61,838 nucleotides of DNA, taken from assembly GCA_035624185.1 (NCBI GenBank), contig DASPRZ010000055.1, positions 1 through 61,838 of the forward strand, given 5' to 3'. A program made the position numbers and the translations under genes. The stretch comes from Candidatus Acidiferrales bacterium. GTDB taxonomy: Archaea; Halobacteriota; Bog-38; Methanoflorentales; Methanoflorentaceae. Position 1 is the first letter of the stretch, and each line of letters starts with the position of its first letter. The notes beneath the pieces were generated by a model, which saw nothing but the letters and a program-made list of their open reading frames with translations, was not told the origin of the DNA and ran no database searches. Shown here one piece after another: positions 3,004-51,067 of this stretch.

Positions 3004-4602
3004 TCACCATTCAGTAATCATACGAACCGTTGTAAAAACTGGCCCCCGTAGATCTATTTTCTTATTTTGACTTGTGATGTAGCGCTTTGCGATAGGATCG
3101 ATTCTGATATTGATATCACTGGGAGATCGAGATATCCTTATCCTAACCTCAAGTTCCTTCCTGCCCTCTTTTAAGGCTCTCTCAATTTCATGTGCTGCTT
3201 CTGCAGCGAAAGCAGCAATGTAAGTAATACCGGTTGAAATGCCAGAGGAGATTGTCGCGCCAATGACGTTGTTATCAGTCACGAAAATCTCATTCAAAAA
3301 AGCAGGGCCGCAAAGTTTTGTGTTCTCTTCGGGTTCAATAACTGAAACTTTTACAAACTCACCCAGCATTTCACCCTCCCACGCAACAAACTCAACGGGG
3401 CTCGGATCTTTGCCATGGATCTTGCAGATATCTACTATCGCATTTTGTACTTCTTTCCCCTGATCCGTAAGCGGCTTCAATCTAATTGAGATAAGATTGC
3501 GGATTTCTTCATCACTTAAGGTAAATTTTTCATAAAATTGTGGGTAGACGAGCTCTCTTATATCTCCATAGTCGTAAACGATCATGGCTATCCTTTCAAC
3601 ACCCGGTCCGCAGTTTAATACGGGAACGTCTATGCCGTAGTTTGCGAGTGTTACAGGACTGTACAGTCCAAAGTCAGATACCTCGAGCCATCCGTCACTC
3701 TCACTTGTCCCGAGGTCGAAGTCAGGATGATACGCATATGCTTCATAATGCTTACCTGGAGCATAATATGTGTCTGTTCCTGTTTCAATCCTGTCAAATT
3801 TAAACTCCTCGAACCCAAGTGGATTTAATAGCTCCGTTGTAATCCACTTCCCAACGTCTATGGAAACATCTTCATCCATCACAACGCAGGACGCTGAGTT
3901 ATGAACTTTAAGGTGTGTGGCATCTTCGCGCTGCTCTCTCCGAAAACGAAGACCGATTGAAAAGAGTTTGACGGGGAGTGATTTATAATGTTGCACAGCA
4001 CTTAGCGTGTCAAACCACGCTGACGTCATATGCGATCGGAGGGTGAGATTTGAGGGCAATGGTTTGAGCTTCTTGAATTCTGGAAGCGTTTTTTCAAATA
4101 CCTCAATCGCACGTGCATCGTCAATGTTCAAAACCCTCGCGATTTCTCTTACAAGCTCATCTGCTTCGACCTCACCCGTTTTCAACTTATGGAGCGTCTC
4201 TTGCAGTTCTAGTACTTTCTTCTCCGGTAGTTCGATTCCAAGTGACCGTATTTTGGCTTGCTTCTGAGCGCTCAGTCCCACGTCTGGTCTCGGGAGTGCG
4301 GCGAGGTAGTAGCACCTATCAAGAATAGCGTACCCTGTTGGCCCCCATTGTTTCATCACATCTTCTGCGGGAAAAATCGTCTCATTTATGACTTCATCAA
4401 ACCCCATTTCAAATAGTCGTTCTCTAAGCCTCCCTATAAGGTCATTTACCCTATGGCTTTTCCCGCGCACCCCTTTGGGGAGGATCCTCGACATGTTATA
4501 AGCGCTACCGTCATTTAGTAATTCTCCGCCATATTTCCATGCACTTTCAAAGTCTTTTTGCTCCTTGATCTTCAATAATTCATCTATGGGTATTCTCTTC
4601 AA
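3004..4602 (-). CDS. sepS: O-phosphoserine--tRNA(Cys) ligase (SepRS)
   Basis: Matches remembered SepRS blocks: DRCYYLAALPRPDVGL, LTLRSHMTSAWF, FRREQREDATHL, HNSASCVV, VYSPVTLANYGIDVPVLNCGPGVERIAMI, YPQFY. Confidence 0.93.
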   Translation of the reverse strand: MKRIPIDELLKIKEQKDFESAWKYGGELLNDGSAYNMSRILPKGVRGKSHRVNDLIGRLRERLFEMGFDEVINETIFPAEDVMKQWGPTGYAILDRCYYLAALPRPDVGLSAQKQAKIRSLGIELPEKKVLELQETLHKLKTGEVEADELVREIARVLNIDDARAIEVFEKTLPEFKKLKPLPSNLTLRSHMTSAWFDTLSAVQHYKSLPVKLFSIGLRFRREQREDATHLKVHNSASCVVMDEDVSIDVGKWITTELLNPLGFEEFKFDRIETGTDTYYAPGKHYEAYAYHPDFDLGTSESDGWLEVSDFGLYSPVTLANYGIDVPVLNCGPGVERIAMIVYDYGDIRELVYPQFYEKFTLSDEEIRNLISIRLKPLTDQGKEVQNAIVDICKIHGKDPSPVEFVAWEGEMLGEFVKVSVIEPEENTKLCGPAFLNEIFVTDNNVIGATISSGISTGITYIAAFAAEAAHEIERALKEGRKELEVRIRISRSPSDINIRIDPIAKRYITSQNKKIDLRGPVFTTVRMITEW

Positions 4603-6794: not shown

Positions 6795-7622
6795 CTTCTG
6801 TTTCTGATATACCTTCTATATCGTTCGTACCGCTTCAAAGTCTTTGTCTTATTTGCTGATCATGCGTTGCATGGATAACTATCACGATTGCGAATGCATT
6901 TGTATGCTTAGGCAACATCGTCTTGTGGTCCAAGGATTATGATTCTGTTAACGTTCGATGTTTCAGAAAAAGAAACAAAATGGTTCATTTTAGTAGTTAC
7001 TAAATTTTAGGTAGCAGTGAAACGTATTTATAATCTTTACCCTTTTGCGCTATCGATGGCATTTAACTTCTTGGGTGGCAAATGTTACTATATTACAAAA
7101 TAAGTTCCAAGTTTTTGGAAACGGTAACCGTAAAGTTATTACAAGTACCAGCACACTGTGTGCCAAATTGGAGGCTTATGAGTGGAGTCGGACAGATATT
7201 TGTCGCGCTGCATGTGGATTCGTAATCGTCCGCTTCGTTGACATTCGTAGTGTCGACACACTCTTTACATGCCCGGCGCATAATAAACTTTGTATCGCAA
7301 CTACATTTGTTTACACTCGGTGTTACTCTCAAATTGTGCGATATTGTCACCATGGATAACGCACGACGTACATAATAGCCCACCTTGTGTTTAGTCCTTT
7401 CAGACGGTGGCTCTTGAGCCTGTAACGATATCGTTTGGCAACGTGCCGTCGATGGATCTATTTTTCTTATGTGTAGAGACAATCCTTGACGCCAACCCAA
7501 GGTATAACAGTGGGCACCGCTATTGATTCTGTTGTAACGTTTACGGAGCAGCGTAGGTGGGGTTGCTTGTAAAAAATTGCATATTTGATTTGATGACATG
7601 CGATATACTGACATCAATGAAA

Positions 7623-7639
7623 TTTACGCTAACCGTAAA
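7623..7639. promoter_or_regulatory. TTTAC-N7-GTAAA operator-like palindrome (TTTACGCTAACCGTAAA)
   Basis: Exact member of the 5-site set, 54 nt upstream of the micro-ORF start. Followed by hairpin 7642..7666. Confidence 0.55.
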
Positions 7640-7692
7640 GCATGTAGCCTTCTGAAAAGGCTGCATATTAAAACTCGAGGAGGTGAAAACAA

Positions 7693-7806
7693 GTGGTCTT
7701 AGCAATATTGTTGTTAGTCGCATTGGCGGTTGGGGCAGTCGGCCTTGTAGCCACGGCATTCTTCCCATTGTTATCGCCGGTGATTGCCTTACTTACTCTA
7801 GCATAA
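7693..7806 (+). CDS. 37-aa hydrophobic micro-protein (MVLAILLLVALAVGAVGLVATAFFPLLSPVIALLTLA)
   Basis: GTG start 6 nt after GGAGGTGA. Paralog at 57830..57940 has identical RBS spacing. Differences between the copies are mostly third-codon-position in this frame. Absent from the ORF track (<60 aa); track ORF 7683..7865 is a different frame. Confidence 0.55.
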   Translation: MVLAILLLVALAVGAVGLVATAFFPLLSPVIALLTLA

Positions 7807-7811
7807 CTATT

Positions 7812-8381: not shown

Positions 8382-10775
8382 TCATTTTACCTTGTACTGT
8401 TTCAGTCGCAATGAATTGGCGACCACTGACACGGAACTGAGCGCCATTGCCCCCGCGGCAAATTCGGGCCGGAGGAATCCCAGTGCAGCAATGGGGATCC
8501 CTACTGTATTGTAGACGAGTGCCCACCCGAAATTCTGCCGTATTGTATTCATGGTCTTCTTAGAAAGCCTGATGCTCGCGATGACATCACGTAGATCATC
8601 CTTTATGAGTGTGATGTCTGACGCTTCTATGGCAACGTCCGTTCCGGTTCCCATGGCAATTCCTATGTCTGCCTGCGCTAACGCTGCCGCATCGTTGATG
8701 CCGTCGCCCACCATCGCCACCGAATGCCCCCCCTCCCGAAAGAGTTCGATTTCGGCTGATTTGCCCGGTGGAAGGACGTTGGAACGCACCGTGTTAATTC
8801 CTATCTGTCGCGCGATGGCAAGGGCGGCTGTGCGATTGTCGCCTGTGAGCATCGCCGTATTAATCCCCATATCCTGCAATGCCGCGATCACCCCCGCCGC
8901 CTCTTCTCGCACCGTGTCAGCAAGGGCGATGGCCCCTTCCAGTTTGTTATTCACCGCCAGCAGCATGACGGTTTTCCCATCAGCTTCCAGTTCCCGGACC
9001 TTCAGTTCGAGGCTAACGTGCACCCCGTGAGCGCTCATAAGCTCTCTATTGCCGAGGAGGACCTCCGTGCCATCGAGGGAGGCTATGATTCCCTGCCCCA
9101 CCACTGCTTTAAACTCTCGGGGCTCACCGAGTTGTACCCCCCGTTCATACGCGTGGTGAACCACTGCCAAAGCAAGAGGGTGCTCGGATCCCCGCTCTGC
9201 ACTCGCGGCAAGGCGGAGAATGTCCGCTTCTGAAAAGGATTCATTCCCCACGATATCAGTTACCACTAATTCACCCTTGGTGAGAGTCCCGGTCTTGTCA
9301 AACACTATTGTGTCAATGTGCTCGGCGTTCTCGAGGTACTCGCCGCCCTTTATGAGGATGCCGTTTTCTGCGCCCAGGCCGGTCCCGACCATGACAGCGG
9401 TCGGCGTCGCAAGTCCCAAGGCACATGGACACGCGATGACGAGCACGGCAACCGTTCTCAGGAGCATAAGGTTGAACGGAAGGCCTACAATGCTCCATAG
9501 CACAAAGGTGAACAGTGCTGCCGCGATCACGCCGGGGACAAAGTAATTTGAGGCCCTATCGGCGAACCGCTGTATGGGCGCTTTCGACGTTTGCGCCATA
9601 TCGACCAGTCGAATGATCTGTGATAACGCTGTTTCCGCTCCCACTTTCGTTGCCTGCACCTTCAACAGCCCCTCCTGGTTGATCGTCGCCCCAATTACTT
9701 CATCACTTGGTTGTTTATCGACCGGAATGGGTTCACCCGTGAGCATAGCTTCGTCAATCGCAGAATGTCCCTCAACAATGACGCCATCGACGGGTATCTT
9801 CTCACCGGGCCGTATGAGGAGGGTATCCCCTACTCGGACATCATCTGTGGGTATTTGATTTTCTCCTCCGTCCCGCACCACTGTCGCATATTCTGCTTTT
9901 AACTTCAGGAGCTTTCGAATCGCCTCAGAGGTTCCACCTTTCGCCCGCGCTTCAAGGTAACGGCCGAACAACACAAACGCGAAGATAAAGACAGACGTGT
10001 CATAATACGTGTCACCGTGAATGACAAAGGTTGCTGCAACGCTGTACGCGTAGGCGGCTATGGTCCCCAATGAGATGAGGACGTCCATGTTTGCCCCTTT
10101 ATGGATAAGCGAGATGATCGCCCGCTTGTAGAAGCCATAGCCGATGATGATCATGACCGGGGTGGTCACCGCAAACTGGAACACGCTGTCCATGAGGATC
10201 ATCGGGATAAACGGAAGATAGGGTGCAAGCATCGCGAGCAAGAGCGGTATCCCAAAAATGAGGGTGAAAATAAGCTGATTGCGGTAGCCCGTAATCTCAC
10301 GTTCTCGAAACGCCTTCTCTCTATCTAAACGGACCGTTTCGGCTTCGACATCCGGAACTTCCACCACGTCATAGCCCGTGTCTCGTATCGTTTGAATAAT
10401 CGTATCTACGGTCACGACTGATGGATCGCGTTCGATTACCGCTTTGGCCGTCACCGGGTTAATGCTCACGTCGATGACGCCGGGCACTCCTTTCAGGGCA
10501 TTTTCGATTGCCGTAATGCAGGCAACGCACGTGATGCCCGCGATGTCAAGTTCCGTCCTTTCGATATCGACATCATACCCCACATCCCGAACCGCCTGTG
10601 CGAGTTGCTTTGGGGCTATTTTATCCGGATCGTAAGCCACAGTTGCCTGTGCTAATGCGAAGTTGATTGTCGCGTGTGTTACGCCCTCTTGATCTAACAG
10701 CTGCTTCTCGATCGTGAGCGCGCACATCGTGCAGGTCATGCCGAGGACTTTAAACGTGATGGTAGTTTCTGCCAT
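8382..10775 (-). CDS. copA: Cu(I)-exporting P1B-type ATPase CopA
   Basis: Two N-terminal HMA domains (GMTCTMC, GITCVAC), CPC motif [25 protein letters not shown]. Confidence 0.95.
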
Positions 10776-10936
10776 TCGAAAGCCTAGTTAGTTTAGTAAC
10801 GCATTTATTTATGCTAAATCATGATAGATAACGATTTGAAGCTACCGTCATCAACATTTTTTACCTTAATTACCTACTTCGGCACTCCGCTGGCGCTGTT
10901 CAGCTCCGTCTCGATCTGATACGCGCTCCAGTCACT

Positions 10937-12517: not shown

Positions 12518-12558
12518 TGGTTTACACCAACTGTAAATTATATCACTCGCATATAAAC

Positions 12559-12575
12559 TTTACGTTTAGTGTAAA
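12559..12575. promoter_or_regulatory. TTTAC-N7-GTAAA operator-like palindrome
   Basis: TTTACGTTTAGTGTAAA in the divergent promoter region. Confidence 0.55.
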
Positions 12576-12624
12576 TATAGTCTACATGGTAAAGTGGCGT
12601 TGCGAAATATTGAAATAGAATAAC

Positions 12625-12641
12625 TTTACAATATATGTAAA
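12625..12641. promoter_or_regulatory. TTTAC-N7-GTAAA operator-like palindrome (extended ACTTTACAatataTGTAAAGT)
   Basis: Ends 10 nt before the ATG of the BlaI-like gene. Longest perfect palindrome of the set. Confidence 0.6.
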
Positions 12642-12650
12642 GTGTAAAAG

Positions 12651-13016
12651 ATGGTAAAACTCGAGCGTATTAGCCTCCGAAATGAAGGGCTTAAAAAGTT
12701 CTTCAGCTCTAACGAAGTCAGGATACTGGAGTTGCTCTGGAAGAAGCAACCACTAACCTCAGCGCAGATACAAAGGGAATGTGAGGATCTTTCCCTCGCC
12801 TGTGTAGCGGGTACCCTTGACAGACTAGTGAAGAGTGGTTTCGTGGAAAGAAAAGTCGACGAGAGCGAAACAAGAGTGCGCTACATCTACTCCCCGACGT
12901 GCACCCAGGATGAACTCGGCGTGAGGATATCAGAGCACGTAGTCGACTGCCTCATCGACACTTTTGGCACTGCTGTTGTGAGCAGCATCGGAAAAGCTCG
13001 GGGGAAACGCAGCTGA
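12651..13016 (+). CDS. BlaI/MecI/CopY-family winged-helix transcriptional repressor
   Basis: 121 aa. The N-terminal pattern FSSNEVRILELLWKKQPLTSAQI is typical of the penicillinase-repressor family. Followed by an M56-type protease gene. Confidence 0.85.
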   Translation: MVKLERISLRNEGLKKFFSSNEVRILELLWKKQPLTSAQIQRECEDLSLACVAGTLDRLVKSGFVERKVDESETRVRYIYSPTCTQDELGVRISEHVVDCLIDTFGTAVVSSIGKARGKRS

Positions 13017-13153
13017 CTGCGCTGGATTGCTTCTTACGTTGTCTCACCCAACTTAACATACTGCTCCCATTTTCTCTCATCATAGCCTCATCGCTCTCTC
13101 TTTTCGTCCTCTTTTTCAAACTGAGGAAATATGAATTCCTCCTCGGGGGCCAG

Positions 13154-13684
13154 ATGGCAGTTACGGTGTCAATAGTGTTTGGTCTAATTTCAATGACGTG
13201 CCCTATGTATCAGTGGATATGGATTTATTCTGGGAGCGTCTCTTCAGGTATACTTGCGCTTACGCTGGTCAGGTACTGGGTGGCAAAAGAAGCTCGCAAG
13301 AACACAGTACCCCTCACCTCTTATGTCTTGCCGCTGGAAAAAGAATTTGGGGTACCGGTGCGGGTAATTGACACTCAGAAGATGCGGGCATTTGTCCACG
13401 GGGAGGCTGCCTATCTCTCGGTGGGGCTCCTAGAACATCTTAATTGGGATGAAGTGAGGGCTGTGGTGGCGCACGAAGTGTACCATTTAAAGCACAGCCC
13501 AGACAAGTTAATCTCTTCATTGCTGGCGCTGACTTCCTTAACCTTTAAGCCATATGATGACGAGCATCTGGCTGATAAGTACGCGGCAAAGGTCGCAGGA
13601 GAAGATAACCTTGCGAGGGCCCTCGAGAAACTGGAAATAGCAGGTAATGTACAGCGGATTAAAGATATTTTCAAAAGCAATTGA
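13154..13684 (+). CDS. M56 (BlaR1-like)/M48 zinc metalloprotease, short membrane-anchored form
   Basis: Two N-terminal hydrophobic segments and the motif VAHEVYHLKHSPD (HExxHxxxxD). The frame stays open and hydrophobic upstream to ~12914 without an ATG/GTG/TTG, so the start is uncertain. Confidence 0.75.
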   Translation: MAVTVSIVFGLISMTCPMYQWIWIYSGSVSSGILALTLVRYWVAKEARKNTVPLTSYVLPLEKEFGVPVRVIDTQKMRAFVHGEAAYLSVGLLEHLNWDEVRAVVAHEVYHLKHSPDKLISSLLALTSLTFKPYDDEHLADKYAAKVAGEDNLARALEKLEIAGNVQRIKDIFKSN

Positions 13685-13826: not shown

Positions 13827-13843
13827 TTTACACTAACCGTAAA
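13827..13843. promoter_or_regulatory. TTTAC-N7-GTAAA operator-like palindrome (TTTACACTAACCGTAAA)
   Basis: Upstream of the Cys-pair peptide gene. Its core is nearly identical to site 7623. Confidence 0.55.
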
Positions 13844-13863
13844 TTATATATTCTGTCACTGAC

Positions 13864-13880
13864 TTTACAGTCATTGTAAA
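13864..13880. promoter_or_regulatory. TTTAC-N7-GTAAA operator-like palindrome (TTTACAGTCATTGTAAA)
   Basis: Second site upstream of 13942. Followed by hairpin 13881..13907, which begins ATGTAG. Confidence 0.55.
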
Positions 13881-13941
13881 TATGTAGACTTGTCCGAAGA
13901 CTACATATTACAAACTCCTACAAACTCTAAGAGGTGAAAAC

Positions 13942-14202
13942 ATGAAAAACAGAGTAAAAATGTTCCTTACAGCATTTCTCGTCTTGAGTGTGTTTGGCAT
14001 AATGATAGCACAGACAGCAAGCGCTGCTGTCCCGCCAGCAAGCACTTCGGCGGCCTGCTGTCCCGGTGGCCCATGCTGTCCCGGTGGCGCTTGTTGCGGT
14101 GTAAAGGTAACGAGTTCTATTGCCGCCCCAACAATCATTTCGACGCTCTGCTGTCCCGGTGGCCCATGCTGTCCCGGTGGCGCCTGTTGCCACGTAAAGT
14201 AA
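13942..14202 (+). CDS. secreted peptide with two CCPGGPCCPGGACC repeats (12 Cys in six vicinal pairs)
   Basis: GAGGTGA RBS. Signal peptide MKNRVKMFLTAFLVLSVFGIMIAQTASA. 93-bp internal duplication (14055.. and 14148..). Confidence 0.7.
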   Translation: MKNRVKMFLTAFLVLSVFGIMIAQTASAAVPPASTSAACCPGGPCCPGGACCGVKVTSSIAAPTIISTLCCPGGPCCPGGACCHVK

Positions 14203-14324
14203 ACGAGCACCATAGCGGGTTGTAAAACAGTTGAACCCACTTGTTGTGCATCGTACTTTTTCTTTTTTTAGCGTTAGGGAAACCTTAAGTAGTCGTAAAC
14301 TTCGAGACCGCATTTAGTGTTAGC

Positions 14325-14660
14325 GTGATGCCAACATTGATAGCGTGGACACGGTCTACAACAGTAAGCGATAAGATCCAGAGGCGGGCAACGGAAGGTT
14401 ACGTGCTCAGTGCACTCCATGATATCCTTCAAGAAGGTGTGAAAGGCGAAACGTCCCGTCGTGTCATGCGCGAGAAATTTGATGAAGAGCTATATCGTCG
14501 GAGGAACCTGGTAGAAACGGTGTTCTCTGTGTGACAGAGAAGCGGGTATTCGGTGAGGTGAATCACAGCAAGAGTGACCGGTTGGGGAGCAAGGAGAGCC
14601 GGTTGAGAGATGTCTGCTCTGTTATACTCTCTACTGGTATTGTAGAAAGGTTATGGTAGT
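14325..14660 (+). pseudogene. IS5/IS4-type DDE transposase C-terminal remnant (frameshifted)
   Basis: YRRRNLVETVFSV, then after a shift TEKRVFGEVNHSKSDRLGSKESRL. No N-terminal catalytic part is present. Confidence 0.55.
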
Positions 14661-14825: not shown

Positions 14826-15047
14826 ATGATGAAAGTTCCTATGAACCAAGATACGAAGACGATGTGCGTCTGCCCGAGCTGTCCCACATTTATGGGAAAC
14901 AATCTCATGACTGGGGTGTTTTGCTCGACAGGTGAGACTGACAAAATGCAACACATGAAGGGATGTAATTGCCCGGGATGTAAAGTGCATGATATGTACG
15001 AGCTCAATGGAGGCAAACACACGTGTGGGTGTTGCTGGTGCGGCTGA
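14826..15047 (+). CDS. DUF2769-like Cys-rich small protein
   Basis: AGGAGGTGA RBS. Motifs CVCPSCPTF, FCSTGE and CNCPGCKVH match the remembered family pattern. Confidence 0.75.
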   Translation: MMKVPMNQDTKTMCVCPSCPTFMGNNLMTGVFCSTGETDKMQHMKGCNCPGCKVHDMYELNGGKHTCGCCWCG

Positions 15048-15685: not shown

Positions 15686-15989
15686 GGTTTTTTAACGTGA
15701 TAGGCTTCGTAGATCAAGTGCTTCTTGTAGAAATAGTCGGGTTTGCGTAGAAAAAATGGCCCTGTTCTTAGACTTAATGTACAAAGCCATTTGTTTGGAT
15801 TTTTGTTAAAAAAGTCCAACGTGTTCAAAAATCGGCTTTTTCTTATTTAACAAAACCGCTCCAAGGAACAAATGACCGGGACTGGGATGAATGACATCAT
15901 CAAAGTGCTCAGATAACTTCGGCAACAAATGCTAAAGACAATAACTTCAAGTTGTATCTATGCAATTTATTCTGAATAAACTTGCTTGA

Positions 15990-16135
15990 ATGGCAGAAAC
16001 CACTATCACGTTTAAAGTCCTCGGCATGACCTGCACGATGTGCACGCTCACGATTGAGAAGCAGCTGTCAGACCAAGTGGGAGTAACACACGCGACGGTC
16101 AGTTTGCATTAGCGCAAGCTATTGATTACGCAACA
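15990..16135 (+). pseudogene. copA 5' remnant (first HMA domain only)
   Basis: [26 protein letters not shown]... is nearly identical to the copA N-terminus, then a stop/frameshift. Its upstream ~70 bp also resembles the copA promoter region. Confidence 0.8.
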
Positions 16136-23489: not shown

Positions 23490-25571
23490 TTAAATCTTCA
23501 AAAACCGTGAATTGATCGCCACGATCACCGTGCTGACGGACATCAATATTGCACCAGCTGCGGGGGACAACAAGATGCCAGAGGGGTAGAGGATCCCGGC
23601 TGCCAGCGGGATAGCGAAAGTGTTATACCCCGTCGCCCACGAAAGGTTCTGCATCATCTTCCTGTACGTCGCACGGGAGAGCCCCACGATTGCCACCGCA
23701 TCGAGGGGATTGCTCCTTACGAGGATGATATCTCCCGTCTCCACCGCAACGTCGGTACCTGCACCAATGGCAATCCCGACGTCCGCCTGGGCCAAGGCCG
23801 GCGCATCATTCACTCCATCACCCGTCATGGCAACGACTAAGCCCCTCGACTGGACCTCTCTTACCTTCGCTACTTTTTCCTGCGGGAGCACTTCTGCGAG
23901 GTACTCATCAAGCCCGATTTCCTCTGCCACCCACTGTGCCACTTGACGGTTGTCGCCAGTGAGCATCATTGTGCGAATGCCCATCTCCTTAAGGGCGGCA
24001 ATCGCATGCTTCGACTCAGGCCTGATGATATCGGCAAGAGCGATTGCGCCAGCTACTGCGCCATTAACCATCACGAATACCACCGTTTTTCCCTGAGAAT
24101 AAAAGTGTTCAACGCGTTCGTCAGCAACGCCTAGGTTCTTCTCTTTCAGGTACCCGGGGCTTACTACCCACACCTCTGTGCCGTTTACCCTCCCCTTAAC
24201 TCCCTTTCCTGGAAGCGCCTTAAACGCCTCAACTTGAAGCGGCGTGCTGGCTGATGCCACCACTGCTTGTGCAATGGGATGTTCAGAATGACCCTCGACG
24301 GCTGCAGCATAGTTCAAGAGCGTTTGCGTATCTAGTGTTGGATCGTCAGTAAAAGTAATGACGTCAGTCACGCCAAACCGTCCCTTGGTAAGGGTGCCCG
24401 TCTTGTCAAAGATGATCGCTTGGATATTCCTCGCACGCTCGAAGGCGCAACGGTTCCGTATTAGCAGGCCATTTTGAGCCCCAAGCGCAGTCGAAACCGC
24501 AACGACTAATGGGATGGCAAGACCAAGGGCGTGAGGACACGCGATGACCATCACCGTCACCGCCCGCTCAAGGCCGAAGTCGACGCTTCGGTTGATGAGC
24601 ACTTGCCATATGAAAAATGTAATGCCCCCTCCTGCAAGGGCGATGATAACGAGCGCAAGAGCCGCTCGGTCTGCCAAATCCTGTGTCCGTGACTTGCTCT
24701 CTTGAGCCTTCTTCACAAGTTCGATCACCTGCGAAAGGAACGAATCTTTGCCCGTCTTTCTTATTGCAATCGTCACTGACCCGTCACCGTTGATCGCGCC
24801 ACCGATGACCATTGTGCCGGGCTTTTTAAACACGGGTTTCGACTCGCCAGTAAGCAAAGATTCATTCACTGAGGTTTCGCCCTCGACGACCTCACCGTCA
24901 GCAGGAACCTTCTCGCCTGGTTTTACTAGAACGCGATCTCCCTCCACCAGCGTGTCTATAGGGGTGTCCTGCACACTCCCATCAGGCATAAGCTTGTGAG
25001 CTTCTGACGGCATCAACCGTGCCAAATCTTCGAGCGCTCGTGATGCCCCCATGACCGAACGCATCTCAATCCAATGGCCTAAGAGCATGATGTCGATCAA
25101 CGTCGTGAGCTCCCAGAAAAGGACGCTACCACGCAATCCAAACACAATCGCAGTGCTATAGAGGTACGCGGTCGTGATTGCGACGGCGACAAGCGTCATC
25201 ATGCCCGGCAAACGTGCCTTGATCTCACTGACGATGCCCTTCAGGAACGGATATCCGCCGTAGAAATACACAAAAGAGGCTAACACAAAGAGCAGATATT
25301 GATCACCCGGGAAGCTAAGGACCGCGCTAATACCGACGAGCTCTTGAATCGACGGGGAGAGGATGATGATCGGGATAGTGATGATGAGAGATACCCAGAA
25401 GCGCCTCCTAAAGTCAGCGACGCTGTGGCCGAGATGGTGGGGTACTCCCCGCCATTCAGCAGGGGGATGAACGGGATGCTCATAGACATGCTCTTGTTCT
25501 GCAGCGTCATGAGATATGGGAGCGTGCATTTCATCGTAACCCTCGTCTCCTTCATGACCGTTGTGATTCAT
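23490..25571 (-). CDS. copB: P1B-3-type copper ATPase CopB (His-rich N-terminus, CPH motif)
   Basis: N-terminus MNHNGHEGDEGYDEMHAPISHD..., IACPHALGLAIP, DKTGTLT, GDGVNDAPAL. Confidence 0.92.
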   Translation of the reverse strand: MNHNGHEGDEGYDEMHAPISHDAAEQEHVYEHPVHPPAEWRGVPHHLGHSVADFRRRFWVSLIITIPIIILSPSIQELVGISAVLSFPGDQYLLFVLASFVYFYGGYPFLKGIVSEIKARLPGMMTLVAVAITTAYLYSTAIVFGLRGSVLFWELTTLIDIMLLGHWIEMRSVMGASRALEDLARLMPSEAHKLMPDGSVQDTPIDTLVEGDRVLVKPGEKVPADGEVVEGETSVNESLLTGESKPVFKKPGTMVIGGAINGDGSVTIAIRKTGKDSFLSQVIELVKKAQESKSRTQDLADRAALALVIIALAGGGITFFIWQVLINRSVDFGLERAVTVMVIACPHALGLAIPLVVAVSTALGAQNGLLIRNRCAFERARNIQAIIFDKTGTLTKGRFGVTDVITFTDDPTLDTQTLLNYAAAVEGHSEHPIAQAVVASASTPLQVEAFKALPGKGVKGRVNGTEVWVVSPGYLKEKNLGVADERVEHFYSQGKTVVFVMVNGAVAGAIALADIIRPESKHAIAALKEMGIRTMMLTGDNRQVAQWVAEEIGLDEYLAEVLPQEKVAKVREVQSRGLVVAMTGDGVNDAPALAQADVGIAIGAGTDVAVETGDIILVRSNPLDAVAIVGLSRATYRKMMQNLSWATGYNTFAIPLAAGILYPSGILLSPAAGAILMSVSTVIVAINSRFLKI

Positions 25572-27646: not shown

Positions 27647-28870
27647 TTATTTAAATTCACCAAAACATTCTAAGACCCATCGGTAGTTTTTGTCCGGATC
27701 GATGCGCTCCCATTTGACTGTATCTATAACGTCTCTACTTAATTCATCTATGTCTATTCGAGACTCAGCGGTTAGCACTGATGTTAAGTCTGCGTTTGTG
27801 CTCGGATGTTTGGGCGCTGCTTTACAAGATGTTTGCCCTCCTGCAGTCGATAATTTATACGTGCCAATAGACCGTGCAATGCGCATGATATCGGTTTTGT
27901 CCATGCCTACAAGTGGTCTAAACACGGGAACCCCGGCTGCATCATTTATTGCAAGCAGATTTGGCGTTGTTTGGCTTGCGACTTGTCCGATACTTTCGCC
28001 GGTAACAATCCCGTGTGCCCCTCCTTCTCGTGCAAGTTCCGTTGCTGACCTATACATCATACGTTTGCACAATAGACATGTTAGTCTTCGATTTGATTGC
28101 GTAGCCTTATGTAGAGTTTTTTCGTGCGTAATACGCACCATGTGCAGTGGTCTTCCTGCCCACACTGCAAGAGCTTTGATACAATCAACTGCTCTTTTTC
28201 TAGCTGTATCCCCCATGTACGATCCGCAATCGTAAAATAGTGGGATTATTTCGCAACCTCGTTTCATCATCATCCACGAAGCGACTGGAGAGTCTATGCC
28301 GCCTGAAATTAACGCTACTATCTTACCCTGTGTTCCTAGCGGCATGCCCCCGACTCCGCGAATAACTTCGGTATACAAATATGACTTTTGATCTCGTATC
28401 TCAATAAATAGTTCAACATTTGGATTGGTCAAATTGACAGACGCCTTTGTTGTATCGGCTATCGCATTTCCTACGATGACACCAACATCCCGACTTGAAT
28501 ATTCGTGTCCCCCCATTCTCCGGACTCTTAATGCAAAGGAGCTCTCTCTCGAAACAAGCGGAACAAGGATTTTAACAGCAAGCAACTCAATATCTCCAAG
28601 ATCGGCACTTGTGGTATATGCGGGGCTTGTTGAAACCACTCCAAATACCTTCGCTGCGATATTTGCGGCTTTTGCATCATTGGTAATTATAAAAATTCTC
28701 CCGAAATCCCGTTTTATCGTTTCGAAGGATATCTCGGCAAACTCCAACATAGTTTTCAAATTTTTAACAAGTGTTTGCTCACATCTTCTCCTTACCTCAT
28801 CGCTTTTAATCCCGATCTCGCCATATCTTACTAAAACCGAGTCCATACTTTTTAAGTCTCTGTCATTCAT
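27647..28870 (-). CDS. thiI: tRNA 4-thiouridine synthase ThiI (THUMP + PP-loop, no rhodanese domain)
   Basis: PP-loop ALISGGIDSPVASW. CxxC (CLLC), as in methanogen-type ThiI. Confidence 0.9.
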   Translation of the reverse strand: MNDRDLKSMDSVLVRYGEIGIKSDEVRRRCEQTLVKNLKTMLEFAEISFETIKRDFGRIFIITNDAKAANIAAKVFGVVSTSPAYTTSADLGDIELLAVKILVPLVSRESSFALRVRRMGGHEYSSRDVGVIVGNAIADTTKASVNLTNPNVELFIEIRDQKSYLYTEVIRGVGGMPLGTQGKIVALISGGIDSPVASWMMMKRGCEIIPLFYDCGSYMGDTARKRAVDCIKALAVWAGRPLHMVRITHEKTLHKATQSNRRLTCLLCKRMMYRSATELAREGGAHGIVTGESIGQVASQTTPNLLAINDAAGVPVFRPLVGMDKTDIMRIARSIGTYKLSTAGGQTSCKAAPKHPSTNADLTSVLTAESRIDIDELSRDVIDTVKWERIDPDKNYRWVLECFGEFK

Positions 28871-36979: not shown

Positions 36980-38224
36980 TTAAAAAAAAGTAGTCGCTAG
37001 CTGATTTACCGATTCCACTAACACATCGACCTCCTCAATCGTATTGTAAGGTCCAAACGATGCTCTTACTGTCCCTTGCACGTCTAAGAACTGTAGCGCG
37101 GGCATAGCGCAGTGATATCCGCTTCTTGTACATATTTTATTCGTCTCATCGAGGATCAAGCTGACGTCGTGTGGGTTTAGTTCCCCGACGTTAAACGAGA
37201 CTAATCCAGCCCTATCAGGTGGACCATAAACCTTAACCCCTTGTATATCTGATAAGTCTTTTGCAGCAAGCCTAGAGATCATGTTCACGTGATTATGTAT
37301 GTTCATAAGCCCGAGATCTTGAACGTACTCAACTGATCGTCCTAACCCGATGACTCCTGGAATGTTGGGGGTTCCTGCTTCGAATCGGTTAGGTGGTTCA
37401 AGGAGTTCATATTCACAGCCCCTTACAGATTCTACAGCCCCCCCTCCAAGCACTGATGGAGCTAAACTCGCGGGATCGTCTGCAATGAGTACCCCCGTTC
37501 CCTGGGGTCCAAGAAGTCCTTTATGTCCTGGCATAGCGAGAAAGTCGCATCCGATCTCTCGGAAAGAGAGTTCTGAGTGCCCTGCCGACTGTGCCGCGTC
37601 AATGAGTACTTTAACATCATTTTTGTGCCCTATCTTCACTATCTTCATGATATCTTGTACTGATCCAAAAACATTTGAAATGTGAGAAATCGCTATGAGT
37701 TTCGTCCTCTCTGTAATTGCATCTTCAATGTTTTTGGGGTCAATAATTCCCTCACGATCAGACTCAATCAAATCAAGTTTAACGCCGTATTTTCTCAGCG
37801 CGATCCAAGGGAGGTAGTTCGAATGATGCTCAATAACAGATGTTATAATCCTGTCTCCAGAGAACCATTCCAGACCATTTGCCACAATATTTATGCCTTC
37901 AGTAGTATTTTTGGTAAAAATAACTTTTTCAGCTTTAGCATTAAAGAAATTTGCGACTACCTCACGAGCTATTTCAAATTGTTCTGTTGTTTTCCGCGCT
38001 AGTCTATGTGCTCCCCTTCCATAGTTAGCAGCATAGGTAAAAAAGAACTCATTCATAGCTTCTACAGATTGTCTCGGCGTCTGACTTGTTGCCGCATTAT
38101 CGAGGTAGATTACCTCGTTGAGAACCGGGAAGTCTCTCCTGATGGAATAAATGTCATACATATATTTTTCGTATAATCTGTCTTCAGAGTTGAAGTTTAG
38201 ATCGTAATTGCTTCTTTGTGCCAA
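36980..38224 (-). CDS. class II (SufS/CsdA-like) cysteine desulfurase
   Basis: PLP-Lys context PGHKGLLGP. Catalytic Cys context RSGYHCAMP. Confidence 0.88.
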   Translation of the reverse strand: MAQRSNYDLNFNSEDRLYEKYMYDIYSIRRDFPVLNEVIYLDNAATSQTPRQSVEAMNEFFFTYAANYGRGAHRLARKTTEQFEIAREVVANFFNAKAEKVIFTKNTTEGINIVANGLEWFSGDRIITSVIEHHSNYLPWIALRKYGVKLDLIESDREGIIDPKNIEDAITERTKLIAISHISNVFGSVQDIMKIVKIGHKNDVKVLIDAAQSAGHSELSFREIGCDFLAMPGHKGLLGPQGTGVLIADDPASLAPSVLGGGAVESVRGCEYELLEPPNRFEAGTPNIPGVIGLGRSVEYVQDLGLMNIHNHVNMISRLAAKDLSDIQGVKVYGPPDRAGLVSFNVGELNPHDVSLILDETNKICTRSGYHCAMPALQFLDVQGTVRASFGPYNTIEEVDVLVESVNQLATTFF

Positions 38225-38472
38225 TACAGTCTAAATCGATTTGTCTTTAAACAGCCCAGATGCACAAAGGTAGTCTCGCTAGACTTTTATAAGTATCTGT
38301 TTTTGGCGCAATATATATTTTAGACGCCGTAGATCTATGCTGAATTTGAACTCTGTCTGAGATGAAAAAACTTTATGAAAAGCAGTTTTTGCTCAAGGAT
38401 GGCAGTATCTTTAAGTTTATAGCACTCTAAGTTTACAAGGGCATAAAATCTCACGGAGCTACTGAAATAACT

Positions 38473-38769
38473 ATGGCCGAGAAAAAGTATAATGCAAAAG
38501 CTGTGAGACCTTGCAAGGGTGGAGGCATCCTCGTAGAGGGTGACTTTGGTAGGCCGCTTTCTATGCAAGTGCTATGCGAAATGTTGAAAGAGATGGGAAG
38601 ATGCTCCGAGAAATTAGGAGTTGCGAGGATTTTTTATGAAGAATGCGGAATCACGTTGTACAAAAACGGCAGGGTTGATGTTCACCGTGTCGACTCCGAA
38701 GAAAGGGCGATCGAGCTTTTGGATGAGATAAAAATGATCGTTGATAAGGCGTTTATCCGCGACTCGTGA
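38473..38769 (+). CDS. stand-alone paralog of the E1-like enzyme's C-terminal domain
   Basis: Aligns with residues ~265-345 of ORF 4807..5844 (RPCKGG vs ALCGRD; ITLYKNGRVDV vs ITLFRDGRAII; ERAIELL vs DRAKSVY). Confidence 0.6.
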   Translation: MAEKKYNAKAVRPCKGGGILVEGDFGRPLSMQVLCEMLKEMGRCSEKLGVARIFYEECGITLYKNGRVDVHRVDSEERAIELLDEIKMIVDKAFIRDS

Positions 38770-38773
38770 AACA

Positions 38774-39163
38774 CTACGCGGCTTCTTTCGTTTTTCCCTT
38801 CATTTTGGCCTTGTAGTCCTCAATTGCTGCGTGCAACGCATCTGCAGCCAAATTCGAGCAGTGCATTTTTATTGGTGGTAGCCCTTCGAGGCTCTCAGCC
38901 ACATCATTCCTTGTAATCTTCAACGCTTCTTCTATAGTCTTTCCCCGTGCAAGATCAGTTATCATGCTGCTCGTAGCGATTGCTGCACCGCAGCCAAATG
39001 TTTTAAACTTTATGTCAACGATGATATTATTTTCAACTTTTATCATGATTTGCATCAAATCTCCGCACACGGGATTTCCCACGGTTCCAACCCCGCTCGG
39101 GTTTTCTATTTCCCCCATGTTATGGGGATTCATAAAGTGCAGCATTACTTTGTCGCTATACAT
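38774..39163 (-). CDS. iscU: IscU/NifU-like Fe-S scaffold
   Basis: GNPVCGD, FGCGAAIA, HCSNLA. Confidence 0.92.
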   Translation of the reverse strand: MYSDKVMLHFMNPHNMGEIENPSGVGTVGNPVCGDLMQIMIKVENNIIVDIKFKTFGCGAAIATSSMITDLARGKTIEEALKITRNDVAESLEGLPPIKMHCSNLAADALHAAIEDYKAKMKGKTKEAA

Positions 39164-39178
39164 TGTTCCTCCAGTTAT

Positions 39179-40375
39179 TCACTCAGGTTTTCCGTAACCT
39201 GCGTCATTACATTTATAAAGCGGTGACATAAGTCGTAGCCTATGTACCACATCGGGAAGCACTTCTAGGACATAATTTATGTCATCTTCTGTGTTATCTC
39301 TCCCAAGTGTTAGCCTCAAAGAACCGTGCGCATCTACAGGATCCAATCCAATTGCAAGGAGAACGTGTGAAGGTTCAAGCTTCTTTGAGGAGCACGCAGA
39401 TCCAGTCGAGGCTGCTATGCCTTTTGCACTGAGACTCAAGACTAACGACTCGCCTTCGATAAAACTGAAACTGAAGTTAGCATTATTAGGGAGTCTTCTC
39501 TCTCTTCCGCCATTTAACCGCACGTGCTCCATAGTGCTCAGAACCGTGTCTATTAGTTTGTCTCTCAGTTTCTTGATTCGTTCATTGTCGTAGAAGTCTT
39601 CTATTGTTAGCTTTATAGCTTCTGCGAATCCAATGATTCCTGAAACGTTTTCGGTTCCACTCCGTAAACCTTTTTCATGTCCCCCCCCAAACAGTAATGG
39701 TTGTAACTTGGTCCCTTTGCGCACGTAGAGACATCCAACACCCTTTGGTCCATAGATTTTGTGTGATGACATCGAAAGCATGTCTACATTCAAGGTATCT
39801 ACATCAACAGGGATTTTCCCGACACTTTGCACTGCATCAGTGTGCAAGTGAACATTATGCGCTTTCGCTATCTCCCCGATCTCTGAAATCGGCTGAATCG
39901 ACCCTATTTCATTATTTGCATGCATAATCGAAATTAACACAGTGTTATCTTTTATCGCAGTTTCAACATCACCCAGATTGACTATGCCATCACGGTTGAC
40001 AGGAACGTACGTGACCTCATGTCCGTCCTTTTCTATGTTCTTGCACGTCTCAAGGATGGCAGGGTGTTCTATTGCGGAAGTGATAATATGGCTTCTTTTT
40101 TTAAGCAAGCCGCGTAACGCCATATTGTCGGATTCGGTTCCACCAGACGTGAAAATGATGTCAGTAGCATTGGCCCCAATTGTACGTGCAATGGTTTCCC
40201 GTGCTTCTTCAATAGCACGCCTTGCTTCAAGCCCATAGGCGTGTAGGCTCGAAGGGTTCCCAAACTTCTCAAAAAAATAGGGCATCATCACATCGAGAAC
40301 TTCCCGGCGCATCGGAGTCGTAGCGGAATGATCGAGATAAATCATGTCACCATCTCGCTGTTCAATTCGTACCAT
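39179..40375 (-). CDS. iscS: class I cysteine desulfurase IscS/NifS
   Basis: SSHKIYGPKG (PLP Lys) and GSACSS (catalytic Cys loop). Confidence 0.92.
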   Translation of the reverse strand: MVRIEQRDGDMIYLDHSATTPMRREVLDVMMPYFFEKFGNPSSLHAYGLEARRAIEEARETIARTIGANATDIIFTSGGTESDNMALRGLLKKRSHIITSAIEHPAILETCKNIEKDGHEVTYVPVNRDGIVNLGDVETAIKDNTVLISIMHANNEIGSIQPISEIGEIAKAHNVHLHTDAVQSVGKIPVDVDTLNVDMLSMSSHKIYGPKGVGCLYVRKGTKLQPLLFGGGHEKGLRSGTENVSGIIGFAEAIKLTIEDFYDNERIKKLRDKLIDTVLSTMEHVRLNGGRERRLPNNANFSFSFIEGESLVLSLSAKGIAASTGSACSSKKLEPSHVLLAIGLDPVDAHGSLRLTLGRDNTEDDINYVLEVLPDVVHRLRLMSPLYKCNDAGYGKPE

Positions 40376-41395: not shown

Positions 41396-42568
41396 ATGAA
41401 GATAGCAGATAGCATACCTGTTCGTGAAGTCGAAGAGACGTATGTTAACATACATCCGATCCAGGCGGCAGGGCGTTTGACCGCAGAGGCTATGAAAGCA
41501 TTAATTGCATTTGGTGACGGATATTCTACGTGCGATCAGTGCAGAAAACCATTCAGACTTGACAAGATTACAAAACCTCCCATTGCGGAGTTTCACGATA
41601 ACTTGGCGAAATTCGTCAATATGGACCATGCACGGGTTACGCCAGGTGCGCGAAGAGCGTTTCAAGCGGTGTGTCAATCACTCGCGGAAAAAGGAGATTC
41701 AATAATAGTAACGGCCGTTGCGCATTATACTGAATTCTTAGCAGTAGAGAGTGCCAAGGCAGTAGTGAAGGAAGTCCCATTGGACAATAAAAATATTATA
41801 ACTGGCGATGCAGTAGCTCAAAAAATAGAGGATGTCACTCGAGAGTCTGGTAAACCACCTGTACTCGTTTTGCTAGATGCTTTTGACTATTCATTTGCCA
41901 ATGAACATGATGTTAAAGGAGCTGTTAAGTCTGCCCACCAGTATGATGTACCTCTATTGTACAATGGAGCATACACTGTAGGTGTGAAGCCGGTCGATGG
42001 AAAAGCGTTGGGAGCCGATTTCGTAGTAGGTTCTGGACACAAATCGATGGCTTCTCCAGCGCCGAGCGGAGTTTTGGCCACAACAGACGAATATGCGAGC
42101 AAGGTACTTCGAACAACACAGATGATGGGTGACGTGACGAGCAGAAAATTTGGTATAAAAGAAGTCGAAATGCTCGGCTGCACACTCATGGGCGGTAACA
42201 TACTCGGTATGATGGCATCATTTCCCACTTTAAAACAGCGTATTAGCGAGTGGGATGAATACGTGAAGAAATCAAACTACGTCATAGATGCAATTTTGAG
42301 TATAAAAGGAAACAGAAGCCTAAGTGAATATCCCCGCAAACATACACTTACAAAAGTAGACACTACTGATAGCTTTGACGTTGTTGCACGAACACATAAA
42401 AGGCGCGGTTTCTTTTTTAGTGATGAATTAAAAGAACGGGGAATTGTGGGCGAATTTGCAGGAGCAACGCGCACTTGGAAATTAAACACCTACGGTTTAA
42501 GCTGGGATCAGACGAAATATGTAGCGGACGCATTTAAAGAAATAGCGAATAAATACAGTCTGTCGTAA
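41396..42568 (+). CDS. pscS: Sep-tRNA:Cys-tRNA synthase (SepCysS)
   Basis: Blocks match remembered SepCysS: FGDGYSTCDQC, GSGHKSMASPAPSGVLA, EVEMLGCT, KRRGFFFSDELKERGI. Confidence 0.93.
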   Translation: MKIADSIPVREVEETYVNIHPIQAAGRLTAEAMKALIAFGDGYSTCDQCRKPFRLDKITKPPIAEFHDNLAKFVNMDHARVTPGARRAFQAVCQSLAEKGDSIIVTAVAHYTEFLAVESAKAVVKEVPLDNKNIITGDAVAQKIEDVTRESGKPPVLVLLDAFDYSFANEHDVKGAVKSAHQYDVPLLYNGAYTVGVKPVDGKALGADFVVGSGHKSMASPAPSGVLATTDEYASKVLRTTQMMGDVTSRKFGIKEVEMLGCTLMGGNILGMMASFPTLKQRISEWDEYVKKSNYVIDAILSIKGNRSLSEYPRKHTLTKVDTTDSFDVVARTHKRRGFFFSDELKERGIVGEFAGATRTWKLNTYGLSWDQTKYVADAFKEIANKYSLS

Positions 42569-45816: not shown

Positions 45817-46698
45817 TCATGTCTCATATTCACTTACCAGAACGAAGTTTTTGATTCTTGGAGTGATGAACCTGACAAACAAGTAAAAAAAGAAGACGAT
45901 GGTTGTTATAAAGAAGCTCACTGGGTACGGCTCAAAAAAACCAATAAAGAGCCCTAACCACGTTGCTATCAGAGCAATGACTGTAGAAATAATTATGACT
46001 CGCCCCGGTCGTTTTGCCAATAGCTGAGCCGTCGCAGCTGGCGTGACCATCAATGAGAAAATGAGGAGGACACCAACTACTTGAACCGCAAACGACGTTG
46101 CTACCGCGACTAGGAGCATGAAAATTATGCCGAGCAAAACCACGGGCAATCCTTTTGCTTCCGCCACATCTTCATCGAGCGATGCAAACAACAGAGGTCG
46201 ATAAACAAACGAAATGAAAACGATAACTATCACGCCGGCAATAAGTGTTAAAAGGACATTGCTGAAACTGACGCCTAATATTTCTCCAAATAAGATGGAG
46301 TACGCTTCAGTTGCATAGCCGGTGTAGAGGCTGAGGAACAACACACCTAGGCCAAGCATGAGTGCGAGGACTATTCCGATTTCGACGTCGCGATTAGCTG
46401 CACGTCGGCCAAGCATAGCTATCCCAAGTCCGCCCACGCTTGTGAAGAGGAGAAGACCGTAAACTGGGCTGACCCCGACTAATACGGCCGCCGCTGCCCC
46501 AGAGAAACCGATGTGGGAGAGCGCATGCGCTGCGAATGAAGAACGGCGCAACACTACGAAGTAGCCAACAATGCCCGCTATGATTGCGACTACTGTTCCT
46601 GCCTCGAAGGCGTGCTGCATGAACTGGTACTGAAACATCTGTTGCAGGTCGATCAATGGATTAATGCTGAAAGTCATTCTGTTCGACATCCGTGGCAA
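45817..46698 (-). CDS. metal (Zn/Mn/Fe) ABC transporter permease, ABC-3 family
   Basis: Polytopic membrane protein in an operon with a TroA/ZnuA-like binding protein and an ATPase. Confidence 0.85.
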   Translation of the reverse strand: MPRMSNRMTFSINPLIDLQQMFQYQFMQHAFEAGTVVAIIAGIVGYFVVLRRSSFAAHALSHIGFSGAAAAVLVGVSPVYGLLLFTSVGGLGIAMLGRRAANRDVEIGIVLALMLGLGVLFLSLYTGYATEAYSILFGEILGVSFSNVLLTLIAGVIVIVFISFVYRPLLFASLDEDVAEAKGLPVVLLGIIFMLLVAVATSFAVQVVGVLLIFSLMVTPAATAQLLAKRPGRVIIISTVIALIATWLGLFIGFFEPYPVSFFITTIVFFFYLFVRFITPRIKNFVLVSEYET

Positions 46699-47471: not shown

Positions 47472-47474
47472 TCG

Positions 47475-50938: not shown

Positions 50939-51067
50939 TCGAAAGCCTAATAAAGCGTCTCTCCATAATAGATTGTAACGGATATCAATTTACAGGGGTC
51001 ATCATAAGTTTATTGCCGTAGTTATAATGGGAACGGTGGCACCTCTCGTTTATGGTAAGGGCTCTTG

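Follow-up and report, generated by a model that had tools for sequence, protein, structure and literature searches.

A predicted secreted CC-repeat peptide encoded next to a BlaI-like repressor and an M48/M56-like protease in an uncultured archaeon, with a candidate role in soft-metal buffering

The vertebrate metallothionein alpha-domain carries its cysteines in the arrangement ...CCSCCPVGC.... A peptide encoded in the 61,838-nt stretch of archaeal DNA analysed here, referred to in full as the window, resembles metallothioneins in its very high cysteine content, its CC pairs beside P-x-G, its lack of aromatic residues, the placement of lysines near cysteines, and the absence of a fold without metal (predicted, in the case of the peptide). 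Metallothioneins are, however, cytosolic proteins that lack a signal peptide and mix CxC with CxxC motifs, whereas the window peptide has a signal sequence and CC pairs, and the absence of any Pfam metallothionein match to it indicates no sequence relationship. The regular spacing of its CC pairs also recalls granulins and other disulfide-ladder modules; granulins are eukaryotic 12-Cys modules with single cysteines at their ends and longer strands, and no confident structure was predicted for the peptide by AlphaFold2 (AF2).

Two groups of exported metal-binding proteins also bear comparison. First, the SilE and PcoE 'molecular sponges' are likewise small, exported, disordered metal buffers found beside metal-efflux ATPases and induced on demand, but they bind Ag or Cu through Met/His motifs under two-component control in Enterobacteria (PMC5008109), and they share no homology with the CC-repeat peptide. 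Second, the bufferins (Buf1/DUF2282 and Buf2/Buf_6/12Cys) sequester copper outside the cytoplasm and are also small, with a Sec signal in place of a leader and with 6 or 12 cysteines (PMC12452194). They depend on a neighbouring MNIO (DUF692) and DUF2063 partner, which convert cysteines to thiooxazoles (PMC12452194); neither was found among the window ORFs scanned, and the peptide matches neither DUF2282 nor any other Pfam family. A ranthipeptide or SCIFF-type assignment does not suit the locus either, there being no neighbouring radical-SAM maturase and no NCBIfam match.

The regulatory genes upstream recall the CopY-controlled cop operons with the chaperone CupA, BlaI/BlaR1 and MecI/MecR1, all of which combine a BlaI-family repressor with paired TACA/TGTA operators and autoregulation (PMC7253601, PMC5772342, PMC1935004). 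Half-sites of the TACA/TGTA type are characteristic of BlaI/MecI/CopY operators, which occur in pairs in cop operons (PMC7253601), and BlaI is reported to be inactivated by proteolysis (PMC1935004). As in the bla and mec systems, a membrane Zn-protease is encoded together with the repressor. The window locus differs from all of these in that its half-sites are 5 nt apart rather than 2, its repressor lacks a CxC motif, its protease is sensor-less and scores as M48, its host is an archaeon and its cargo is a cysteine-repeat peptide. Our best explanation of the locus, to which we give a probability of about 0.4, is that it encodes a Sec-exported CC-repeat thiolate sponge for soft metals that is derepressible through the BlaI/M48 pair.

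The peptide gene and its alleles

The peptide gene (Table 1) encodes a signal part, MKNRVKMFLTAFLVLSVFGIMIAQTASA, and a mature part, AVPPASTSAACCPGGPCCPGGACCGVKVTSSIAAPTIISTLCCPGGPCCPGGACCHVK. The N-terminus follows the classical n/h/c order of a Sec-type signal, with MKNRVK, a hydrophobic stretch and then TASA/A, and gave a sub-threshold match to an archaeal signal-peptide model in the NCBIfam scan; on these features the product looks to be exported. All 12 cysteines of the mature part fall within six CC pairs, which make up two six-Cys CCPGGPCCPGGACC units (CC-PGGx-CC-PGGx-CC), and the composition is 21% Cys with no aromatic residues. The ORF, the GAGGTGA ribosome-binding site, the Sec-type signal and the mature part of about 58 residues with 12 cysteines are as described in an earlier note on this DNA. 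AF2, run with nine and then with 48 sequences, returned a pLDDT of 40-52 for the mature part and no fold outside the signal helix, which spans residues 2-27/29 and is the sole confidently modelled element. A scan for bacterial-type terminators found none.

Table 1. Features of the window discussed in the text (positions are those of the 61,838-nt stretch).
Feature	Position	Strand	Remarks
CC-repeat peptide gene	13942..14202	+	ORF, 86 aa
Signal peptide part of peptide gene	13942-14025	+	
Mature part of peptide gene	14026-14199	+	58 aa; stop 14200-14202
93-nt tandem duplication	14028-14120 / 14121-14213	+	source of the two 6-Cys units
Shine-Dalgarno-like GAGGTGA	13931-13937	+	4 nt 5' of ATG; identical in L012
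Oligo-T tract TTTTTCTTTTTTT	14257-14269	+	archaeal-type terminator signal; kept in L012
Two operator-like sites TTTACA-N5-TGTAAA, peptide promoter	13827-13843, 13864-13880	+	
Archaeal TATA-like box AAATTATATATT	13841-13852	+	bracketed by the two operator-like sites
Palindrome / 5'-leader hairpin ATATGTAGACTT-N5-AAGACTACATAT	13879-13909	+	12/13-nt arms
Three copies of operator motif, BlaI-like gene promoter	12521, 12559, 12625 (12521..12641)	+	
BlaI/MecI/CopY-family winged-helix repressor	12651-13016	+	121 aa; PF03965
M48/M56-like membrane Zn-metalloprotease	13013..13684	+	HEVYH ... ExxAD; about three N-terminal TM helices
IS5-like transposase remnant	14325-14534	+	between peptide gene and DUF2769; weak, E = 0.0014; also in L012
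DUF2769 Cys-rich small protein	14826-15047	+	PF10967, 5e-9
CopA	8382-10775	-	two HMA domains, CPC motif
copA 5' fragment	15988-16113		89.8% identical to 10651-10777
Second intact Cu-type P1B-ATPase	23490-25571		CPH motif
copA-like remnant	49844-50949		about 75% identity
ZnuABC	45817-48410		
SepRS	3004-4602		
SepCysS	41396-42568		
Sulfur/cysteine genes, SepRS to O-acetylhomoserine sulfhydrylase	3004-4602, 27647-28870, 36980-40375, 41396-42568, 54652-55920		

The two units are copies with a 93-nt period, which had been described before as near-perfect; this is true of the 43-nt Cys core (14055-14097 against 14148-14190, 97.7% identity) but not of the flanks (66%), and overall identity is 81%. 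The duplication can be traced beyond the stop codon, where GVKVTSSI aligns with HVK(stop)TSTI, so the stop sits in a former linker, as had been read from the window sequence earlier.

Further alleles came from scanning the metagenome collection for the pattern and from a look-up via the neighbouring repressor. One of them, L012, is on a contig of GCA_035625475 that is binned as 'Candidatus Acidoferrum' and is probably mis-binned, since it is syntenic with the archaeal loci; the contigs of L046-L050 bear names from the JGI series of the window's own metagenome contig. The peat-metagenome alleles comprise four distinct protein variants. Every one of the 12 cysteines is kept in L012 and L046-L050, and the alleles differ by spacer substitutions, by the loss of one codon (CCPGPCC) and by an added complete CCPGGA unit, such that unit number and spacing vary while all indels are in frame. 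With pairwise dN/dS values of 0.17-0.22 at a dS of about 0.3, the sense frame is under purifying selection, and the promoter, TATA-like box, ribosome-binding site and T-tract are conserved in L012. The earlier note would have taken unconserved Cys pairs among homologues as a sign of low-complexity drift; the CC pairs are conserved, and the ORF is very probably a real gene.

Within single alleles the Cys cores are more alike than their flanks (in the window, L012, L048 and L050), and one variable residue is common to both units, being P in the window allele and A in L012. Both features suggest gene conversion or slippage between units. Two antisense ORFs over the gene (13908-14240 and 13927-14313) are longer than the sense ORF, and the gene calls for L012 list an antisense ORF of 146 aa (7292-7732, minus strand) at this position; with the antisense ORF chosen in this record, the peptide gene can be missed in annotation.

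A family of CC-repeat peptides and a partner gene in Planctomycetota

With the window peptide as query, a word-indexed search of 5.8 billion proteins returned a single homologue, P0001, which as a query itself returned seven further homologues. A nine-sequence profile scanned exhaustively against 1.84 billion protein representatives gave 72 matches at E values up to 1e-3, from which six long repetitive proteins were taken out (two were inspected, and both are granulin-like), and 69 proteins were kept as the family. The homologue search that the earlier note had proposed has thus turned up a family with some 70 representatives in a set of 1.84 billion proteins.

A signal-like N-terminus is present in 64 of the 69 members, and 89% of all cysteines in the family reside in CC pairs, most often four residues apart (207 cases) and next most often five (100 cases), giving the consensus CC-P-[D/G]-G-x-CC. 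The window peptide has the same make-up, namely a signal and at least two units of the form CC-x4/5-CC-x4/5-CC in which x1 is P and x3 is G. Multi-unit bacterial members have K-containing linkers between units, and a C-terminal lysine is found in 28 members. Where the source names an organism it belongs to the Planctomycetota, Gemmataceae or Gemmatales, and all members are annotated as 'hypothetical'. Against an HMM built from the other members only, the archaeal mature peptide scored 32.3 bits, where 500 shuffles that keep the composition reached at most 2.9 bits and 500 that keep the CC pairs at most 10.7 bits. This places the resemblance, be it due to descent or to convergence of a simple repeat, in the arrangement of the sequence, beyond its Cys content.

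The family appears to be undescribed. Pfam and NCBIfam scans of the window peptide and 10 family members produced weak signal-peptide noise only, a PDB profile search with the family gave insignificant matches only, all to disulfide-rich domains (Dickkopf, spider toxin), and a full-text literature search for CCPGG- and CCPDG-type motifs found no relevant paper; the suspicion that the repeat lies outside described families was thus well placed. A DNA scan of the genome collection turned up no family member in archaeal species-representative genomes and numerous matches due to chance, off-frame and GC-rich or collagen-like, and a scan of viral sequences for the repeat found chance repeats only.

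In Planctomycetota an unannotated Cys-rich ORF of 137-163 aa lies directly upstream of the CC-peptide gene (loci L003, L013-L018, L025, L028, L030 and L034; for example L034:6529-6966). Its product has a hydrophobic N-terminus ending in LALPQGWCC, internal CxxC and CCC motifs and a C-terminal PLHVLxCVWLC. No Pfam or NCBIfam family matched it, and an HMM of this partner matches 12 of the bacterial loci examined (13 fragments), with no match in the window at E values up to 10. By gene order and sequence, the partner and the CC-peptide gene seem to form an undescribed two-gene cassette in Planctomycetota; the archaeal gene has the repeat peptide without this cassette. Besides the partner, no recurrent metal, redox or maturase gene was seen in the neighbourhoods of the bacterial homologues, whose other neighbours are unrelated housekeeping genes. 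One distant member adjoins a thioredoxin-fold (redoxin-fold) gene, which hints at redox chemistry.

The BlaI-like repressor, its candidate operators and the surrounding genes

The repressor scored 42.6 bits (9.1e-11) against PF03965 (Penicillinase_R), above the cut-off of 22.6, and members of its cluster are named as BlaI/MecI/CopY family proteins. It is not a CopY/TcrY equivalog, reaching 20.4 bits against CopY_TcrY (TIGR02698) where the cut-off is 121.95, and its sequence contains neither the CopY CxCxxxxCxC metal site nor any CxC. The membrane protein encoded with it is an HExxH Zn-protease of the BlaR1/MecR1 kind in this respect. An upstream BlaI/M56 module had been proposed previously; the BlaI-family winged helix stands, while the protease matches Pfam M48 (25.8 bits) rather than M56. 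HEVYH and ExxAD are conserved, and in all relatives the protease gene overlaps or abuts the repressor gene. The protease has no sensor (penicillin-binding) domain, ending about 60 aa after its catalytic motifs.

The frame that encodes the first TM helix of the protease (13013-13153) is open and conserved, with no ATG, GTG or TTG in the window; there is a CTG at 13013, the TTG of L012 has been lost, and no canonical start precedes the ATG at 13154. The motif SM(N/T)CPMYQW is conserved in the second TM helix.

With up to one mismatch allowed, the window contains five TTTACA-N5-TGTAAA sites where 0.29 would be expected, and none of 100 shuffles reached five. All five lie in two promoters, three in that of the repressor and two in that of the peptide. 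The peptide-promoter sites are 37 nt apart, the second covering the expected transcription start, and this operator-TATA-operator order recurs in the repressor promoter, where the spacing is 38 nt. L012, L046, L047, L049 and L050 keep the half-sites and differ in the spacers; L012 and L047 have three copies before the repressor gene as in the window, and relatives that lack the peptide have a single site, before the repressor gene. These patterns support the interpretation of the upstream palindromes as repressor-type sites common to the peptide and BlaI-like promoters. The earlier note had counted two palindromes upstream of the gene; the two operator-like sites are there, and with a leader hairpin between the second operator and the ribosome-binding site the symmetric elements total three. 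Compensatory changes preserve the hairpin in L012 and in a copy at 7643-7665.

This copy is part of a truncated paralogue of the peptide-gene promoter and leader at 7623-7810, which retains one operator (TTTACGCTAACCGTAAA), the hairpin with its compensatory changes (TGTAGCCTT...AAGGCTGCA) and GGAGGTGAAAAC, has AAG in place of ATG, and is missing the TATA box and second operator. A hydrophobic ORF of 37 aa could start at the GTG at 7694. The segment may be the relic of a second cargo gene or encode a tiny membrane peptide.

The peptide gene directly follows the BlaI and M48 genes in every archaeal locus for which upstream DNA is present. The repressor-protease pair is also conserved beside ThiF in related genomes without the peptide gene, including on a 2.7-Mb contig, and the peptide appears to be a variable cargo of this module, a role that, like the bacterial family and its conserved partner gene, had escaped the earlier note. 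The shared operators, conserved sites and synteny support, without proving, a regulated cargo of the BlaI/M48 pair, and we regard control of the peptide gene by the BlaI-like repressor as likely. The segment with the peptide and DUF2769 genes lies within a variable island, and related genomes (L004-L011) lack it. The DUF2769 neighbour reported earlier is indeed present, and lies downstream of the peptide gene in five of the six other archaeal peptide loci (L012, L046-L049).

Proximity to copA had been offered as a further clue, and copA is nearby on the opposite strand, but L012, L047 and L049, although syntenic in other respects, lack this gene; its linkage is specific to the window's version of the locus, and we have downgraded it as support for a copper role. 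L046 lacks the second Cu-type P1B-ATPase. The intact and fragmentary copper-ATPase genes of the window (Table 1) read as repeated gain and decay in this region.

The window also contains genes for sulfur and cysteine metabolism, comprising SepRS, ThiI, two class-V aminotransferase/IscS-like genes, SepCysS and O-acetylhomoserine sulfhydrylase, together with TauE and FdhD. SepRS is 67-71% identical to proteins of Halobacteriota MAGs and at most 49% identical to those of named Methanosarcinales; no protein beyond the close cluster of SepRS exceeds 71% identity to it, so the host lineage is poorly sampled. Given SepRS and SepCysS, the host is presumably an anaerobic member of an uncultured, methanogen-like Halobacteriota lineage. 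A Borg or mobile-element origin of the DNA is unlikely, as its flanks are syntenic with the 2.7-Mb contig of a related archaeon.

Candidate functions of the peptide

In the explanation that we prefer, the BlaI-family repressor would bind the paired TTTACA-N5-TGTAAA sites at its own operon and at the peptide gene, where the bound sites would flank TATA box and transcription start in both promoters. An envelope signal would activate the co-encoded, sensor-less M48/M56-type membrane protease, and the activated protease would inactivate the repressor, leaving both promoters derepressed. The unfolded thiol-rich peptide, once outside the membrane, would serve as a metallothionein-like buffer of soft metals, most likely of Cu(I) and possibly of Ag, Cd, Hg or As(III), with each six-Cys module providing the ligand set for a small metal-thiolate cluster.

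Several features favour a role in metal handling. The mature part is thiolate-rich and free of aromatic residues, and has no predicted fold even with 48 sequences, which is what an apo-metallothionein would be expected to give with AF2. The window contains CopA, the CPH-type Cu-ATPase, two copA remnants, ZnuABC and DUF2769, and BlaI-family control of copper export and of extracytoplasmic copper chaperones has precedent. In a host that is presumably anaerobic, exported thiols would stay reduced. Weighing on the other side, the bacterial members of the family lie outside metal-resistance loci, the repressor lacks the CopY metal site and the protease a recognisable sensor domain, and the protease gene of the window has no canonical start for its first TM helix. 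In addition, the regular pattern of CC pairs and turns fits a disulfide ladder equally well, as the granulin cross-matches indicate. Soft-metal buffering as the biochemical function of the peptide is therefore a tentative proposal.

The main rival is that the peptide is a disulfide-laddered, protease-stable mini-protein of granulin or knottin type, with a role as antimicrobial, inhibitor or envelope component, in which PxG turns produce a serpentine with successive CC pairs cross-linked and in which the switch answers envelope stress and not metals. The strict regularity of CC spacing, the turn-forming P-[D/G]-G, the cross-match of the family profile to eukaryotic granulin-like repeats (P0049, seven stretches) and the disulfide-rich nature of all the weak PDB matches are consistent with this structure. 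BlaI-type systems classically respond to cell-wall stress. Most family members, moreover, are from Planctomycetota, one with the thioredoxin-fold neighbour, and Planctomycetes may well oxidise such Cys pairs to periplasmic disulfides. Against a ladder in the archaeon, AF2 did not produce a confident hairpin stack even with 48 sequences, the host looks anaerobic with no oxidase or Dsb-like gene nearby, and no immunity or export genes are present; we judge it unlikely here.

Alternatively, the product could be a multi-core precursor that is cleaved after the lysine ending each unit (GVK/V..., ...HVK), releasing separate six-Cys chelators or signals, possibly modified. The xVK end does lie inside the duplicated unit, the K-containing linkers and terminal lysines of the bacterial members would fit such processing, and Sec-exported, Cys-bearing copper RiPPs exist in the form of bufferins (PMC12452194). 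Lysine-rich linkers are, however, typical of metallothioneins too, and the M48-like gene accompanies the repressor gene also where the genome lacks the peptide. The window ORFs examined include no MNIO (DUF692), DUF2063, radical-SAM, YcaO or lanthipeptide enzyme, the 10 kb to each side of the peptide gene are free of radical-SAM genes, and no maturase genes were seen beside the bacterial homologues. The lack of MNIO, DUF2063 and radical-SAM genes makes a bufferin- or methanobactin-like RiPP route unlikely, leaving the RiPP or chalkophore option of the earlier note without support, and we consider a multi-core precursor improbable.

Slightly more improbable still is an extracellular thiol or persulfide carrier, or redox buffer, tied to the sulfur metabolism of the host. 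The window has SepRS, SepCysS, ThiI, the two IscS-like genes, TauE and O-acetylhomoserine sulfhydrylase, and a redoxin gene adjoins one bacterial homologue, but the sulfur genes are housekeeping genes 10-40 kb away, the peptide is in the variable island apart from them, and there is no adjacent sulfurtransferase. Finally, a non-functional low-complexity ORF born of repeat slippage, or a real gene on the antisense strand, is suggested by the longer antisense ORFs, by the antisense call in L012 and by the similar DNA patterns that off-frame GC-rich repeats give by chance elsewhere, but is largely refuted by the purifying selection, invariant cysteines and exclusively in-frame indels of the sense frame, by the signal peptide, ribosome-binding site, operators and terminator on the sense strand, and by sense-frame homologues across phyla.

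Returning to soft-metal buffering, a bolder version is that CC-x4-CC-x4-CC is a new autonomous extracytoplasmic metal-cluster unit, for example of the Cu4S6 type, that was recruited as a BlaI/BlaR-type output and that in Planctomycetes works with a Cys-rich membrane partner; this we hold to be doubtful. If it were true, the peptides would be a new class of exported metallopeptides, and the archaeal locus a BlaI/BlaR-type switch with an identified cargo and operator.

Should a soft-metal sponge be right, the CC-repeat peptides would stand beside the Met/His periplasmic sponges and the enzyme-modified bufferins as a type built on cysteine, one that needs no maturase and whose short repeat is open to direct synthesis and testing. 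The locus also offers an operator and cargo pair for the study of archaeal BlaI/BlaR-type proteolytic signalling, for which we know of no inducing signals. Beyond the archaea, it points to an unannotated two-gene cassette in Planctomycetes, and the antisense annotation in one related public record indicates that the family may be under-called.
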